A DNA stretch of 4,513 nt, taken from IMG/VR virus record IMGVR_UViG_2609459857_000001; one strand, 5' to 3'. Source of the DNA: a virus. Taxonomy: Duplodnaviria > Heunggongvirae > Uroviricota > Caudoviricetes. Shown piece after piece: positions 1-4,513 of this stretch. The notes below the pieces were generated by a model. The model was not told the DNA's origin, ran no database searches, and saw nothing but the letters and a program-made list of their open reading frames with translations. Position 1 is the first letter of the stretch. Every line of letters starts with the position of its first letter. The translations under genes were made by a program, and so were the position numbers.

Positions 1-322
1 GCGTATGAGCACCAATACCGACAGTATGTGCGTGTGCACCTGCGCTTGCAGCAGTACCCGATACAGAGTGCGTATGAGCGCCTGCAGAAGAAGTGTTAAC
101 ACTGTATTTAGAATAATCAGGTGATCCACTTCCCGGAGCACCACTGGAACCACCTGAAACAAATGTCATCGAATGGGTATGTGCACCGGCTGAAGCAGCC
201 GTACCGCTAACACTATGGGTATGCGCACCAGTGTTATTCGTGGATTTAGTGCCGTAATCAAACGACGATGTGGTTTTCGTCCCCAAATCCGTACTGGATA
301 CGCTGGCGCTGTGGGTGTGTGA
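1..322 (-). other. C-terminal His-x-His motif array of stf (probable metal-binding fibre tip), truncated by the window edge
   Basis: HTH occurs at Stf aa 976-978, 1008-1010, 1022-1024 and 1057-1059, HAH at 1071-1073, and a further His at 1080 sits at the window edge. The motifs are embedded in Gly/Ser/Thr/Ala-rich sequence. The 17-residue block [17 protein letters not shown] occurs twice (aa 1006-1022 and 1055-1071). Confidence 0.6.
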
Positions 323-3244
323 TTTAATGCCGTCCTGTTCCTGAGACAATACGGCTCGATCACTGGCGGGCTTGCCCTTAATCGTCCAGCCACGCATATC
401 AGGGATCACGCCTGACGGATAAGCAACTGCAAGTTTCGGGTAAGCAGATTTGTCAAAAGTCTGCCCCTGCATCAGGGCATAACCAGACGGAACGGTATCT
501 GATGGCCACGGGATTGGTGCGCCGACTGGATAAAACTCTGCAGGAGGATGAGCCGAGGTGTAAAGCTGCGCCCACGGCGACCAGTTTGCGTCGGTCGTAT
601 CCCGTCGTGAACGAATAAATGCCGGAGCATGATCGCCGCTGGTTCCACTCCAGCCAATAAGTAACTCACCCTCTCCTACTGCGGTTACACCAGTGAGATG
701 AAGCACATTACCATAGGTTGTTGGGTAGCCATTGTTGTATGCCTCATACATCTGAATGCCTGGTGTACCCTTTGCGCTCCCACTTAATGCCGTAACACGG
801 TTTCTGGATACTAACGTATTAATATTTATATCGCTGGAACCATCAAATTTAACTCCATTTATATTTATCGCATTTTGTAACTTGGTTGCTGTCAATGCGT
901 TACCGTTCAGACTTGCGGACAGTTTGGTTCCAATAACCAGTTCGCCGGTTGCGTTATCAATAGCAAACGGTCTTAATGTATTCCAGCCACCATAAACATC
1001 ACCTTGATTGGTAAGCAGCAGGTAAGTTTTAGCGCCATCATTACGCCATAATGCACCATACTCCCCACCTATCATTCGAATCTGATTACCACCACGCGCT
1101 ACAATTTCGTCTGTGGCAAAAAGTTTTTTGCACGACAAGTTATCGTTAACGATTAACGAATGAGACTCATAAAAACCACGCCCACTCTTAAAATCAAGGA
1201 TAACGTCCGCCGCGATACATTCAGTCGCCGGATTTGTTGCCCCAAACTTATAGGTCGTATCATTAACAACGAGATCAGCACCAGGTGCGGATATTGACAG
1301 GCCATCTTCGATAAACGCAAAAACAGGGAAAGCAGCGCCATCAACATAGAACACAGAGCGCAAATCATCGCCCTTATTACTCATCATTATTGAGTGGATG
1401 GCTCGTTCATTGTTTTGATATTGCCAGAACATTCCATAAGCATAACGCCCCCTGTCAGTCCAGCCACCAGGCATAACAAATCCGTTAAACTCGCAGTTAT
1501 TCATCGGATCGCCTGCGGTTCGCGTTGCCGTGGTGATAATGACCCTTGATGCCAGTTCGCTTACTGAGCCAGTAGAACGCATAACAACAACAGGGTAATA
1601 TTTTCCAGATGTTGCACCTGCAGGAGCGTTAACCCGCACATAACGCATACCACGCTTATCAGCAAAGTCTGTTTTACTGACCGCGTTAATGTTGTTCAGG
1701 AAGCGTCCCTTATCGGGTATATCAGCGCCGTTCTGGTCTTTCTGCAGACGTTTCTCTGCATTGTCATAGGCTGATTTTACTGCCTTTGGCGTTGCCGCCA
1801 GCGTTTCAGACGTACTGTTGGTCGCACTGCTGAGCTGTACTATCCCCTTTTTCGTCGTGCTTGCATCCTCAAGCGCCACGGCAGATGCAATATCCTCTGC
1901 TCGTTTTGCCGCTGTCTCGGCGCGCGTTGCCGCGGATTCCGCCGTACTTTTGCTCTGTGCTGCCGCCGTCGCACTGCCAGCTGCCTCTGTCGCCTTCGTG
2001 GATGCTGTCGTGGCGCTGCCCTTCGCTGCTGACGCCTGTCTGGTCGCCTCATCTTTTGAAGCAGACGCCGATGATGCCGATGACGCCGCCGAACTGGCGG
2101 ACGATGCCGCTGCCGTTTTTGAGGATTCTGCACGGGTTTCCGACGCTTTCGCGTTCGTTTCGGATGTCTTCGCTGCGGAAGCTGACCTCGCTGCTGCACT
2201 GGCCTGTTCAGTGGCTTCGCCAGCCTTCGTTGTGGCTGTTGAAGCGGACGATGCGGCGCTTTCTGCCGATTTTCCGGCGGCGCTAGCACTGGCTGAGGCC
2301 TGCCCGGCACTTGTTGACGCTGCACTGGCAGACGACGCAGCCGCTGTTTTTGAGCCTGCTGCTGCTGAGGCACTCTGTGCTGCTGCCGTTTCAGAGGACT
2401 TGGCGTTTGTCTCAGACGTCTTTGCCGCCTTCGCGGAATTTCCTGCCGCCGTTGCCGAGGAAGCGGCACTACTGGCGCTTGATGATGCGTTCGTTTCTGA
2501 TGATTTCGCTGCCTCTTTTGAGGCCGCCGCATCCCGGGCTGAGGTGGCAGCTTCTGACGCCTTTGTGGTCGCGGTGGATGCAGAAGTGGCTGCTGATTGT
2601 TGTGACGCTGCAGCATTCGTTTCTGACGTTTTCGCGGCACTGGCACTGGTAGCTGCCGCGCTTTTTGAGGACTCTGCAGCAGCAGCACTTTTCGATGCTT
2701 CAGTGGCCTTTGTTGATGCCGTTCCTGCGCTGGAAGACGCTGACTGAGCCGACGAAGCGGCCTGTCCGGCTGACGTGCTGGCTGCGCGTGCTGAGCCTGC
2801 AGCATCAGTCGCATGGGTTGCCGCCTCACGGGCTGATGTGCTGGCATCACTGGCTGACTTCTTCGCGGCTGCCGTGTTCTGTGCCACCACGGACGCGTTA
2901 CGCGCCACCTCTTCCACCATCAGCTCAAAACGGCGCAGTGCCTCCGGACGGGCATCATCCTCCGTCATGGCACCGAGAAAATCATTCAGCGTACCGGGTC
3001 GGGAATCTTCATACACTGTGATGGTCCCGGCATGTGACGGCGGGAATCCTTCCACCAACAGAATAACGCTGTACTGACCGTACTCAACGTCCATACTGTA
3101 ACGCCCGGCTTCATCCGGATTTTCTGAGGCCAGCGTGTTCACCACCACCGTGGTGCTGTTACGTTTTGCTTTCAGCTGGATTGTGCAGTTCTGTACCGGT
3201 TTTCCTGTGCCGTCTTTCAGTACACCTGAAATTTTTACTGCCAT
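1..3244 (-). CDS. stf: Side tail fibre protein of a lambdoid prophage (Stf family, long Rac-StfR-like form); 1081 codons in window, 3' end beyond the left edge
   Basis: ATG at 3244-3242 is preceded by GGGGUGAAU (SD-like). My hand translation of the minus strand gives [118 protein letters not shown]..., then a ~330-aa Ala/Ser/Thr-rich region, then ...[56 protein letters not shown]..., then ...[49 protein letters not shown]..., then ...KSHTHSAS...[20 protein letters not shown]...[27 protein letters not shown]. There is no in-frame stop across all 1081 codons. The N-terminus is recognised as the lambda Stf / E. coli prophage side-tail-fibre N-terminus. The frame is missing from the ORF track because no stop codon falls inside the window. 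Confidence 0.93.
362..523 (-). other. Phage tail collar-type domain inside stf (Stf aa ~908-961)
   Basis: Sequence [49 protein letters not shown] fits the collar-domain pattern P.G(W/Y)..(C/M).G......YP.L......G.(I/L)PD(L/M)RG as I remember it from the Pfam 'Phage Tail Collar Domain'. No HMM search was run. Confidence 0.6.
1775..1846 (-). other. Conserved phage tail-fibre motif ([24 protein letters not shown]-like) inside stf
   Basis: Stf aa ~467-490 read [24 protein letters not shown], followed by [12 protein letters not shown] recognise this as the short motif widely shared among tail-fibre proteins (P2/lambda/T-even types). The Pfam assignment was not verified. Confidence 0.5.
1874..2860 (-). 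repeat. Protein-level heptad repeat array inside stf: 47 consecutive 7-residue units of form x-S-A-x-x-A-x (Stf aa ~129-457), a probable trimeric coiled-coil shaft
   Basis: Parsing the translation in sevens from K129 gives [56 protein letters not shown] ... TSETNAK ... [21 protein letters not shown] with no register break. Ala sits at positions 3 and 6 of almost every unit and Ser dominates position 2. The sub-motif (T/S)SETNA(A/S/K) recurs at aa 206, 248, 276 and 360, with spacings of 42, 28 and 84 residues, all multiples of 7. At DNA level the units use varied codons, so this is a coding periodicity rather than a tandem DNA repeat. Confidence 0.8.
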
Positions 3245-3255
3245 ATTCACCCCAC

Positions 3256-3282
3256 AAAAAAGCCCACCTGAAACGGCGGGCT
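3256..3282 (-). terminator. Intrinsic terminator-like hairpin downstream of lom
   Basis: Minus-strand RNA reads AGCCCGCC-GUUUCA-GGUGGGCU, an 8-bp stem with one G-U pair, followed by UUUUUU (3261-3256) then GUGGGG. It lies between the lom stop (3309) and the stf start (3244). Confidence 0.6.
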
Positions 3283-3308
3283 GTCATAACACTGTGTTAC
3301 CTGGCTAA

Positions 3309-3908
3309 TCAGAACTTATAACCGACACCCACGATGAAACCGTCAGTGCGCCAGTCGCCACTGCCGGAGCCTTCATAAGCAATATCAATGGCCACGGATT
3401 CGGTCGGGTTAAACTGCACGCCAGCTCCCCACGCCAGAGACGTGTTGCTGTGGCGACCGTCATCACTTCCGGTCAGCACATCGTGCGTTTTCCCCTTGTT
3501 GTCAGTTACGCGGAGATAATCCCCGGAGAAAGTCGACACACGGCTGTAAGCCACACCCGCCATCGCATACGCGCTGAACCATTCATTCACGCGTACAGAC
3601 GGCCCCGCCATCACGCTGAACCAGCGGTTACGCACGGAATCTTCATGCCAGCGGGTATCGCTGTAACGGGTAATCTGGCGATTCTTGTCTCCTGCATAGC
3701 TGAACGACGTCACCATTCCCAGAGTGTCCGTAAACTCATAACGGTATTTCACGTTAATCCCGTTCAGATCATCGCTGCCGGAAACGTTCGTCGAGGCATG
3801 AAGATAGCCCGCGCTCAGCGTGGACTGATGTTCAGACGCCCATGCAGGCGCACCGGATACGGCCAGACAAATGGCTGCGGACAAAATGGCGGCATAAAGT
3901 TTACGCAT
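3309..3908 (-). CDS. lom: Outer-membrane protein Lom (Ail/Lom/PagC family 8-strand beta-barrel), a lysogeny-expressed accessory ('moron') gene
   Basis: 199-codon ORF with ATG at 3908 and TGA at 3309-3311. N-terminus [24 protein letters not shown] is a typical Sec signal peptide ending in an AxA cleavage motif. C-terminus ...GVGYKF has the terminal aromatic residue typical of beta-barrel outer-membrane proteins. The sequence is recognised as near-identical to phage lambda Lom, and it sits between J and stf as in lambda. Confidence 0.95.
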
Positions 3909-3912
3909 AATT

Positions 3913-3918
3913 ACCTCT
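3913..3918 (-). promoter_or_regulatory. Shine-Dalgarno / ribosome-binding site for lom
   Basis: Minus strand reads AGAGGU followed by AAUU and then the lom ATG (3908-3906), giving a purine-rich SD with about 4-8 nt spacing. Confidence 0.55.
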
Positions 3919-3932
3919 CGCTTTTCTGCAAT

Positions 3933-3956
3933 AAAAAAGGCGTCATTTCTGACGCC
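3933..3956 (-). terminator. Intrinsic (rho-independent) terminator-like hairpin immediately downstream of J
   Basis: Minus-strand RNA reads GGCGUCA-GAAA-UGACGCC, a perfect 7-bp GC-rich stem with a GNRA-type tetraloop (plus coords 3939-3945 / 3950-3956), followed directly by UUUUUU (3938-3933) then AUU. It lies 19 nt after the J stop codon. Confidence 0.7.
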
Positions 3957-3974
3957 CGTTATGGGTTATAAAAT

Positions 3975-4513
<539 letters not shown>

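Follow-up and report, generated by a model that had tools for sequence, protein, structure and literature searches.

The window analysed here, the whole stretch of 4,513 nucleotides taken from a virus record of the Caudoviricetes (IMG/VR IMGVR_UViG_2609459857_000001), carries on its minus strand, between 1874 and 2860, coding sequence whose translation consists largely of alanine, serine and threonine, raising the question of whether this stretch is a folded shaft, a flexible tether or an outcome of repetitive DNA. A sequence-only reading had proposed the first: a side tail fibre (Stf) shaft, built as an alanine-core coiled coil of a single register, unusual in kind and grown by duplication of short blocks.

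The stf coding sequence (1..3244, minus strand) begins with an ATG at 3244 and stays open for 1081 visible codons, running past the left edge of the window, which ends before the stop codon. Pfam matches of the translation (PF08400, Gp34_trimer, Collar and Phage_fiber), PDB sequence matches, and phage records in which stf homologues are labelled side tail fibre all bear out the proposed identity as a side tail fibre shaft. On the same strand lie lom, directly upstream of stf (3309..3908; Ail/Lom outer-membrane protein, PF06316, E=5.8e-119), and the 3' end of gene J (3975..4513; PF12421, E=2e-37), which encodes the receptor-binding C-terminal domain of the central tail fibre, is named J in phage records and has a frame open to the window edge. 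The order J, lom, stf on one strand recurs in phage 2H10 and in Rac; the window DNA is 96.6% identical to 2H10, a lambdoid phage whose 1117-residue Stf is the closest phage homologue and in which tfa comes after stf, tfa having been seen only in the homologous 2H10 and Rac loci. Judged from sequence, the protein is a lambda-type side tail fibre, on the grounds of its PF08400 N-terminal domain, the J-lom-stf order, the residue at which its rod starts and its gp37-like tip.

Several modules can be assigned along the protein, all encoded on the minus strand. Residues 1-94 make up the N-terminal collar domain (2963..3244; PF08400, E=1.5e-71, with the match spanning residues 1-134; PDB 9e7m/9mgh chain 1-94, E=1.8e-51), the domain reported to dock Stf on the tail tube (PMC12617516), and are followed by a short flexible linker to the rod, residues 95-100 (EDDARP; 2945..2962), which lies outside the heptad register and corresponds to the lambda linker 92-101 (PMC12617516). 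The rod comprises four initial heptads (residues 101-128; 2861..2944), where the EALRRFE anchor kept across the Stf family is found, and the Ala/Ser-rich heptads of residues 129-457 (1874..2860). Beyond the rod, residues 458-521 (1682..1873) form a junction common to Mu gpS, PDB 5yvq (Mu tail fibre protein S) aligning to residues 441-521 with E=1.4e-16 for that stretch; residues 663-787 (884..1258) resemble the C-terminal trimerisation domain of T4 gp34 (PF21446, E=3.2e-27; PDB 4uxe, 5nxf, 5yvq); and residues 904-1081 (2..535), cut by the window edge, contain a collar domain and a T4 gp37-like needle with HxH repeats, the receptor-binding tip (PDB 2xgf, E=2.1e-64; PF07484, PF03335). Identical rods bear differing C-termini, with total lengths of 791-1176 aa, and the C-terminal modules are swapped from about residues 458-521 onward.

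Translation of 2860..1874 yields residues 129-457, exactly the 329 residues and 47 heptads of pattern x-S-A-x-x-A-x that had been claimed. A heptad HMM that penalises register jumps returned one unbroken segment, without stutter, stammer or skip, in each of two runs (126-457 and 101-457); the single register thus stands, and the break that alignment might have exposed did not appear in Stf. Alanine fills position 6 in 46 of the 47 heptads (the exception is valine), serine fills position 2 in 37, and position 3 is alanine in 34 (the rest being K6, E6 and Q1), with alanine also at positions 5 and 7 in 18/47 and 19/47 heptads, respectively. The power of the alanine indicator is 10.5 at a period of 3.50 residues and 3.9 at 7.0, compared with a maximum at any period of 1.3 +/- 0.3 (mean), never above 2.6, in 500 residue shuffles, and alanine is maximal in the same register in every 21-residue window from ~123 to ~450. 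In residues 101-128, positions 3 and 6 are occupied by L/F/V/V/A/V in the register of residues 129-457, which therefore extends N-terminally to residue 101 and makes the run 51 heptads, not 47. The same start at residue 101 is seen in lambda Stf and in 153/153 locus-derived homologues, the register being unbroken in 150 of these 153.

The composition of residues 129-457 (125 Ala, 83 Ser and 39 Thr among 329, while Gly, Pro, Val, Ile and aromatic residues are nearly absent) is extreme enough to suggest an intrinsically disordered, low-complexity Ala/Ser/Thr linker, acting as a flexible tether and not a folded rod. AF2, applied to the monomer only, and prone as such predictions are to call long Ala-rich sequence helical, nevertheless placed model residues 4-381 of 383 in one helix, with a mean pLDDT of 72 falling to about 50-59 over model residues 151-240 (Stf ~245-334); this agrees with the initial claim that the region is helical and neither beta-structured nor disordered, although the moderate confidence, down to ~50 mid-rod, could also be taken as a sign of disorder. 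So could the instability in solution to which all-alanine-core trimers are liable, reported for the Lpp mutant Ala-14 (PMC4137666). A tether, however, has no reason to hold alanine at one position with a single exception, or one register over 51 heptads; the register is preserved across the homologues, length variants differ by whole heptads, the predicted helix is continuous, and in the lambda homologue the fibre appears hinged, its proximal domain turning as a rigid body (PMC12617516). Disorder is judged highly improbable. A beta-structured fibre, either a triple beta-helix or a beta-spiral like those of many tailspikes and distal T4 fibres, would be in keeping with the C-terminal two thirds of Stf, in which the gp34-like and gp37-like domains are beta-rich, yet the rod has a dominant period of 3.50 residues and not 2, is rich in alanine while nearly lacking the Gly, Pro, Val, Ile and aromatic residues noted above, is predicted as helix throughout, and has a lambda homologue described as a coiled coil (PMC12617516), all of which makes a beta fibre extremely improbable.

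The reading favoured here, with a probability of about 0.85, is that the proximal rod of lambda-type Stf is a parallel trimeric alpha-helical coiled coil, for which the periodicity, unbroken register, helical prediction, homology, genomic context and whole-heptad variants come from the present data, and the trimer and coiled coil are carried over from the literature on the lambda homologue. Three parallel chains in register are further supported by the three-helix coiled coil of DT57C LtfA and by one relative (L102), in which collagen-like GXY repeats, an obligate trimer motif, follow a shorter rod of the same register. A study of Ur-lambda Stf by cryo-EM, cryo-ET and AlphaFold3 already assigns a trimeric coiled coil to this region, with an N-domain at 1-91, a linker at 92-101 and the proximal coiled coil from residue 102, and the cryo-EM depicts a trimeric bundle tied to three collar domains by ~10-residue linkers (Yu et al. 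2025, Sci Adv, PMC12617516); the Stf chain of the deposited entries (9e7m/9mgh) has only 94 residues, and the rod rests on low-resolution density and AlphaFold3 segments. The trimeric coiled coil suggested at the outset is thus in agreement with a published homologue.

An arrangement in which the chains instead fold back into an antiparallel helical bundle must also be weighed, since heptads rich in alanine, with Ala at every seventh residue, are also the hallmark of antiparallel alacoils. AlphaFold3 did produce a folded-back structure for full-length lambda Stf, but this model was judged by its authors to be inconsistent with cryo-ET of extended side fibres (PMC12617516). The AF2 monomer is moreover a single straight helix with no turn or fold-back, residues 101-457 contain neither a Gly/Pro-rich turn segment nor a register break, and the N- and C-terminal domains must sit at opposite ends of the fibre; fold-back is considered very unlikely.

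In the parallel trimeric coiled coil, each of three identical chains would supply a single unbroken alpha-helix of ~357 residues (101-457), and the three would wind in register into a left-handed assembly. An inward stripe of the smallest side chains, position-6 Ala flanked by position-2 Ser and position-3 Ala (sometimes Lys, Glu or Gln), would allow very close helix packing, and so a thin rod of perhaps ~2 nm diameter and ~53 nm length. The length arithmetic of the sequence-only reading was right for its 329 residues (~49 nm), the longer figure being that of the full 357. The four N-terminal heptads, with their Leu, Phe and Val, are a probable nucleation or cap segment, and Ile, Val and Leu at the C-terminal end probably act likewise; the ends would further be held by the trimeric beta-rich C-terminal domains and by the collar attachment. 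Given the instability of Ala-14 in solution, we infer that the stability of the Stf rod must come from its length and end domains. The rod would serve as a spacer, keeping an OmpC-type receptor-binding tip off the tail so that the tip, and only later the central fibre J, meets the cell surface.

The composition of the core is less uniform than first described. The placement of alanine at two positions spaced 3 and 4 residues apart holds well for position 6 (98%), but position 3 is alanine in just 72% of heptads, and because 13 of its 47 residues are Lys, Glu or Gln, alanine at both positions is a consensus and not a rule. The phrase 'all-alanine core' was accordingly an overstatement: K/E/Q occupy position 3 in 28% of the heptads of this Stf, and in a sister Stf class E/Q/K, mostly Glu/Gln, do so in 24 of 36, so that a simple core of Ala at a and d is not established. 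Family-wide, the conserved features are position-6 Ala and, with more exceptions, position-2 Ser, which makes the a/d assignment ambiguous; the second candidate core position is either position 3 or position 2 (Ser 79%), and an Ala(a)/Ser(d) core, in which position 3 would be an e position at its flank, fits just as well. On inspection of the heptad table, charged pairs between the putative g and e' positions were too few to tell a from d.

The DNA itself might hide an overlapping gene in another frame or record a recently expanded tandem repeat. Long ORFs do overlap the rod (1818-2747, plus strand, 309 aa; 1840-2850, minus strand, 336 aa), but open alternative frames are to be expected because no frame of a run of GCN, TCN and ACN codons contains a stop, and the products would be Pro/Arg/Gln-rich or Ala/Val/Phe/Asp-rich low-complexity strings; an Rfam search gave no family match, and a promoter scan of 1700-4000 gave no promoter-like site. 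As to a tandem repeat, no array of period 21, 42 or 84 nt was found by TRF, a repeat search returned only families that are 60-78% identical with spacings in multiples of 21 nt, and the longest exact repeat is 11 nt, compared with 13.1 +/- 1.9 nt in synonymous-codon shuffles (11 nt or less in 22% of them). Either form of this explanation has next to no probability. The absence of DNA-level repetition that had been remarked on is confirmed by the lack of a TRF array and the weakness of the repeats, but is not notable, synonymous-codon shuffles giving the same level. The idea that DNA repeats are avoided was rejected on this account, the repeat content being typical of such shuffles.

Growth of the rod by duplication finds little footing at the protein level. 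The motif [TS]SETNA does recur in phase, as had been pointed out, at residues 206, 248, 276 and 360 (spacings of 42, 28 and 84). Each TSETNA spacing spans an even number of heptads, but for three spacings the chance probability of this is 1/8. When 4-heptad blocks were compared at all in-register offsets, against a null shuffling each heptad column, the best internal similarity was 20/28, which equals just the 95th percentile of the null; there is therefore no robust internal duplication, and the proposed 14- or 28-residue growth blocks are not supported. A tandem or recently duplicated DNA array was rejected in view of the missing TRF array, exact repeats not above those of shuffles and protein blocks no better than the null.

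Rods of 51, 36, 35, 22, 20, 19 and also about 33 heptads occur among relatives, as counted from related loci and a representative search (a protein search with the N-domain gave only partial fragments of 113-224 aa), and 20 of 23 cluster representatives have anchors separated by a distance exactly divisible by 7. Differences between natural length variants amount to 1, 15, 16 or 32 heptads and do not keep to the units of 2 or 4 that had been raised as a question. Length probably evolves as whole heptads are lost or gained in register, through recombination between degenerate repeats. A 15-heptad length quantum (51, 36, 21) was rejected as a rule, the wider sample adding 35, 22, 20, 19 and ~33.

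Lengths of 36 and 51 heptads dominate, and the 15 heptads (105 residues) between them come close to one turn of the supercoil. It has also been considered, as an unlikely possibility, that the rod is a selected design, in which an Ala/Ser core would make the trimer very thin, only marginally stable and soft in torsion, layers of Lys, Glu or Gln at position 3 would lock the axial register of a core of small residues otherwise prone to slip, and a few preferred sizes would tune the reach and azimuth of the tip. Were this so, the rare natural variants of +4, -3, +9 and -1 (mod 7) would be natural experiments on stutters and beta-layers in a fibre that works.

The very regular repeat is real, yet it is a common, already described module and in that sense ordinary: E. 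coli K-12 StfR contains it, as do 3592 (two thirds) of the 5426 complete E. coli genomes, and the description 'unusual' does not fit. The finding opens no new question, its main value being correct annotation, whereby an odd low-complexity Ala/Ser stretch becomes the spacer rod of a side tail fibre. Genomes contain several prophages with this near-identical module, which may contribute to the truncation of many database Stf entries near the N-terminal domain. With the rod conserved as a unit onto which receptor-binding C-termini are swapped, its length (36 vs 51 heptads, ~37 vs 53 nm) is a natural variable for engineering lambda-type particles with chimeric Stf, and the whole-heptad rule indicates to engineers which insertions and deletions the fibre will probably tolerate. 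Nothing relevant emerged from the literature on SASAAA, MDETNR and ADAKKS, motifs taken to be Stf fusion points.

Among the closest known systems is StfR of the E. coli K-12 Rac prophage (b1372, 1120 aa), which has the same 51 heptads and is 99% identical in the N-domain, 96.9% in the rod (101-457) and 98% in the junction, with an ungapped identity of just 50% after about residue 560; its context (lomR, stfR, tfaR, then the invertase gene pinR) is that of Stf here, and the literature searched yielded no work on how the StfR rod is built or what it does. Ur-lambda Stf is nearly identical over the N-domain (1-94), and lambda-derived contigs are about 91% identical over residues 1-128. Lambda Stf shares the linker, the heptad start at residue 101 (EVLRRLE, EALRRFE here), the x-S-A-x-x-A-x heptads and the C-terminal junction at DIASAVA, but has 36 heptads in place of 51 and a different region downstream of the junction. 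In a MAFFT alignment with lambda orf-401, the difference corresponds to residues 304-408 (2021..2335, minus strand), a 15-heptad block (105 aa, ~15.6 nm) missing from lambda without any change of register. In the sections of the Ur-lambda report drawn on here, neither the Ala/Ser core nor the continuity of the register is discussed (PMC12617516).

Further afield, a rod-only PDB sequence search gave just two borderline matches, to a chain of the 8hqz lateral fibre protein (E=0.031) and to T7 gp17 (E=0.036). In the first, the heptads GSAAAAK GSEIAAK ESELNAK of the T5-family lateral fibre (T5 pb1/DT57C LtfA) align to the Stf rod in a match that is driven by composition. A long helix of DT57C LtfA from T40 forms a three-helix coiled coil radial from a dodecameric collar, 8hqz being cited (PMC10713586), an architecture as in lambda, although the T5 family uses a separate collar protein, LtfC, where Stf has a built-in N-domain. 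The T7 gp17 segment (172-271) is rich in Asn, Glu, Arg and Phe, not Ala/Ser, and belongs to a podophage with six fibres and a much shorter rod; that proximal rod is described as a triple-helical coiled coil between the N-terminal attachment domain and a hinge, and is reported to unwind dynamically (bioRxiv 10.1101/2025.10.22.683886). A physical model for a thin rod is offered by Lpp-56 and its Ala-5 to Ala-14 mutants (PDB 1EQ7, 1JCD), in which, as proposed for Stf, alanine lies at the core of parallel trimers: the alanine-zipper mutants crystallise as such, with the supercoil radius decreasing from 6.1 to 5.1 A in Ala-14 (PMC4137666), although Lpp-56 has no homology to Stf and spans only 56 residues against 357, and the Stf stripe has Ser and occasional Lys, Glu or Gln mixed in.

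The long minus-strand open frame that begins at ATG 3244 and leaves the window at its left end after 1081 codons carries a PF08400 'prophage tail fibre N-terminal' domain at residues 1–134 (E=1.5e-71), a T4 gp34-like trimerisation domain at residues 663–762, a collar domain at residues 908–955 and a T4 gp37-like needle tip (PDB 2xgf, E=2.1e-64). Upstream lie lom (3309–3908, −; PF06316, E=5.8e-119) and the 3′ end of gene J (3975–4513, −), with a PF12421 receptor-binding domain in a frame open to the window edge. Lambdoid phage 2H10 is 96.6% identical across 89% of the window length, and after its 1117-codon stf homologue come a tail-fibre assembly gene and an invertase; together with the domain matches, this identity and gene order identify the frame as the side tail fibre gene, stf, of a lambda-like phage or prophage. 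Two GC hairpins with T runs resemble terminators, one at 3261–3282 (−), just after lom and ahead of the stf ATG, the other at 3938–3957 (−), just after J and ahead of lom, so that lom is bracketed by terminators, as is also annotated in phage mEp460. Beyond stf-tfa, outside the window, an invertase/site-specific recombinase gene in opposite orientation in 2H10 (locus L198, 128–718) and in the Rac prophage (pinR; locus L199, 9085–9675) suggests invertible tail-fibre ends.

The heptad run first reported in Stf, residues 129–457 (window 2860..1874, −), comprises 329 residues, exactly 47 heptads of the pattern x-S-A-x-x-A-x (positions 1–7). The power spectrum of alanine occurrence has its top peak at exactly 3.50 residues (10.5) and its second at 7.0 residues (3.9), whereas the strongest peak at any period in 500 shuffles averaged 1.3 and never exceeded 2.6. 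The alanine maximum keeps one phase in every 21-residue window from ~123 to ~450, and a heptad HMM, in which register jumps were permitted at a cost, returned a single unbroken segment; the 47 heptads in one register described in the sequence-only reading are borne out on all these counts. Residues 101–128 already follow the register, their positions 3 and 6 being occupied by Leu, Phe and Val, and the last heptad is DIASAVA (451–457), giving a total of 51 heptads, longer than first reported. Four copies of the motif [TS]SETNA are present, all in phase and spaced 42, 28 and 84 residues apart.

Alanine fills position 6 in 46 of 47 heptads (the exception being Val), serine fills position 2 in 37 (otherwise K, Q, A, H or I), and position 3 is Ala in 34, the remainder being Lys (6), Glu (6) and Gln (1). 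The proposal of alanine at two heptad positions is therefore sound for position 6 and a consensus of 72%, not a rule, at position 3, and the 'all-alanine core' survives only in part, with Lys, Glu or Gln at position 3 in 13/47 heptads, often adjacent ones (K194/E208/Q215, K243/E250, E278/E285/K299, E362/E369/K376). A sister Stf class of the E. ruysiae type (36 heptads) has Glu, Gln or Lys at position 3 in 24/36, with Ala at position 6 and Ser at position 2 each in 32/36, and position 5 turning to Ala in 25/36. Plotted on a heptad wheel, position 6 lies between positions 2 and 3 on adjacent spokes, and two core assignments fit the spacing: a=3, d=6, as originally proposed and as favoured by the N-terminal cap, or a=6, d=2 with position 3 as a flanking e, where charged residues become canonical, as favoured by the sister class and by I452 and V456 of the C-terminal cap. 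The core assignment is ambiguous, the choice lying beyond sequence alone; under either, the smallest residues make up the inward stripe. Physical precedent for such a stripe is provided by alanine-zipper mutants of Lpp-56, which form parallel trimers in crystals with the supercoil radius reduced from 6.1 to 5.1 Å, the all-Ala version being reported as unstable in solution (PMC4137666). Stability of the Stf rod would come from its sheer length, the hydrophobic end heptads and the trimeric domains C-terminal of it.

A single-sequence AlphaFold2 monomer of residues 95–477 is predicted as one continuous helix (model residues 4–381 of 383; mean pLDDT 72, dropping to ~50–59 at Stf residues ~245–334), which, as a monomer prediction only, argues against the beta structure or disorder that would have undermined a helical shaft. 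The Ur-lambda homologue offers stronger evidence for a coiled-coil rod. In the tail solved by Yu et al. 2025, each side fibre is described as a gpStf trimer whose N-domains (1–91) join a dodecameric collar, whose linker (92–101) runs into a 'trimeric bundle', and whose residues 102–393 are assigned to a proximal coiled-coil domain with a hinge at its end, on the combined basis of cryo-EM, cryo-ET and AlphaFold3 models of segments (PMC12617516). The deposited Ur-lambda Stf chain comprises 94 residues only, leaving the rod without an atomic experimental model, and a PDB sequence search with the rod alone gave just two matches, both borderline: an 8hqz 'L-shaped tail fiber assembly' chain (E=0.031) and T7 gp17 (E=0.036), for which a triple-helical coiled coil has been described in the proximal region. 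In L102, a related locus from a MAG labelled 'Clostridiales' (SFGJ01000067.1), the Stf N-domain and a shorter same-register rod of ~18 heptads are directly followed at residues ~227–330 by collagen-like GXY repeats (GPPGPKGEQGPAGPQGPKGDKGERGD...), the coiled-coil rod being replaced by a collagen triple helix within one fibre scaffold; protein representatives P0145 and P0153 are similar.

Variation in rod length mostly respects the register. The window protein and lambda Stf can be aligned without any change of register: the lambda heptads begin at the same residue and end at the same DIASAVA junction, but the 15 heptads of window Stf residues 304–408 are missing from lambda. Of 23 cluster representatives (50% identity) that retain both anchors, one of them the conserved start (EALRRFE, residue 101), 20 have an anchor-to-anchor distance of whole heptads only, namely 36 (ten), 51 (four), 35 (four), 22, 20 and 19; the other three are all offset by −1 residue. 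The 16 heptads from SSETNA(248) to TSETNA(360) are absent from one 35-heptad form, 32 heptads are absent from a 19-heptad form, and forms of 36 and 35 coexist inside the sister class, at odds with the anticipated steps of two or four heptads. A 15-heptad quantum (51, 36, 21) was also considered and dropped, being contradicted by the wider sample.

Register breaks were found in 3/153 locus-derived proteins: a 4-residue duplication (a stutter), a 3-residue deletion (its equivalent) and a 9-residue duplication (+2 modulo 7). Following Hartmann et al. 2016 (PMC4786415), stutter-type breaks are the mildest and the +2 type forces a beta-layer; these rare variants may reflect errors of assembly, or may be experiments of nature on stutters and beta-layers. 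Breaks are carried by loci L009 (~aa 224), L035 (~aa 392) and L079 (~aa 198) and representatives P0138, P0143 and P0174, and comprise a gain of 4 aa by duplication of TSAS, a loss of 3 aa, a gain of 9 aa by duplication of SKSAAAAES, and a deletion that amounts to −1 mod 7.

Window Stf shows no sign of recent growth by duplication of 14- or 28-residue blocks: its best pair of four-heptad blocks matches at 20/28, equal to the 95th percentile of a column-shuffle null, and none exceeds it. Rod DNA likewise contains no TRF array of period 21, 42 or 84 nt, and a repeat search recovered only families of 60–78% identity spaced by multiples of 21 nt. When synonymous codons were permuted among positions with the same amino acid, the longest exact repeat (11 nt observed; 13.1 ± 1.9 nt permuted) and the number of repeated 12-mers (0 observed; 3.2 ± 3.1 permuted) both fell within range, 22% of permutations being at or below the observed value in each case. 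Weak DNA repetition, singled out earlier as notable, is thus neither avoidance nor preservation but what random synonymous codon choice for Stf yields, and the excess repetition left by recent duplication was not found in the rod DNA by this permutation. The sister class (loci L101, L103 and L118–L197; E. ruysiae / E. coli viral contigs) has at residues 101–352 a 35–36-heptad rod in which a 14-residue unit (TSETNAK xSxTAAK) predominates, with a ~9-heptad higher-order repeat; here duplication of blocks is evident in the protein sequence, and the C-terminal part of this class is unrelated (…EPYKQVLQPLPDVWIPFNDSL…). Open frames cross the rod on both strands (window 1818–2850), including 1818–2747 (+, 309 aa) and 1840–2850 (−, 336 aa, Pro/Arg/Gln-rich); such frames are to be expected, since consecutive GCN, TCN and ACN codons hold no stops in any frame, and they are very likely not genes.

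Far from being unusual, the shaft is ubiquitous: rod DNA is present at ≥80% coverage in 3592/5426 complete E. coli genomes, in up to seven places per genome. The rod is called at exactly 101–457 in 57/153 Stf proteins from viral and genomic contigs, with five more differing solely at its C-terminal end. Most compared rods are 93–99% identical to that of the window and carry C-termini giving totals of 791–1176 aa, indicating that N-domain, rod and junction act as one conserved cassette on which receptor-binding ends are exchanged. The best 120 database clusters for the Stf N-domain (P0001–P0120) are all 113–224 aa, most named ones being labelled 'partial', so many entries end near the N-domain/rod boundary, possibly because short-read assemblies break where several prophages share a near-identical rod (≤7 copies). 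The frameshifted stf of lambda PaPa (orf-401, 401 aa; ~91% identity to the query) occurs in genome contigs L083–L100, L105, L108, L112, L114 and L116, in assemblies labelled Leeuwenhoekiella, Pseudomonas, Shewanella, Oceanobacillus, Bradyrhizobium, Kitasatospora and others; these contigs are either ~48.4–48.5 kb or tiny and low-coverage, and look like lambda DNA contamination.

The heptad run is genuine and its original description precise, and it is the well-known, ubiquitous Stf/StfR shaft, the coiled-coil nature of which is already published for the lambda homologue; what the analysis adds is small, namely how strictly the family keeps the register, a length polymorphism in whole heptads (51, 36, 35, 22, 20, 19) and the ambiguity of core assignment. 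Rac StfR of E. coli K-12 (b1372), neighboured by lomR, tfaR and pinR, shares all 51 heptads, with 96.9% identity. Ur-lambda is described as carrying four side fibres, longer than the central fibre, that bind OmpC and make adsorption 10–30 fold faster (PMC12617516). By homology, the window rod would be a ~53 nm spacer presenting the gp37-like tip, its length plausibly setting reach, compared with ~37 nm for the rod of lambda.
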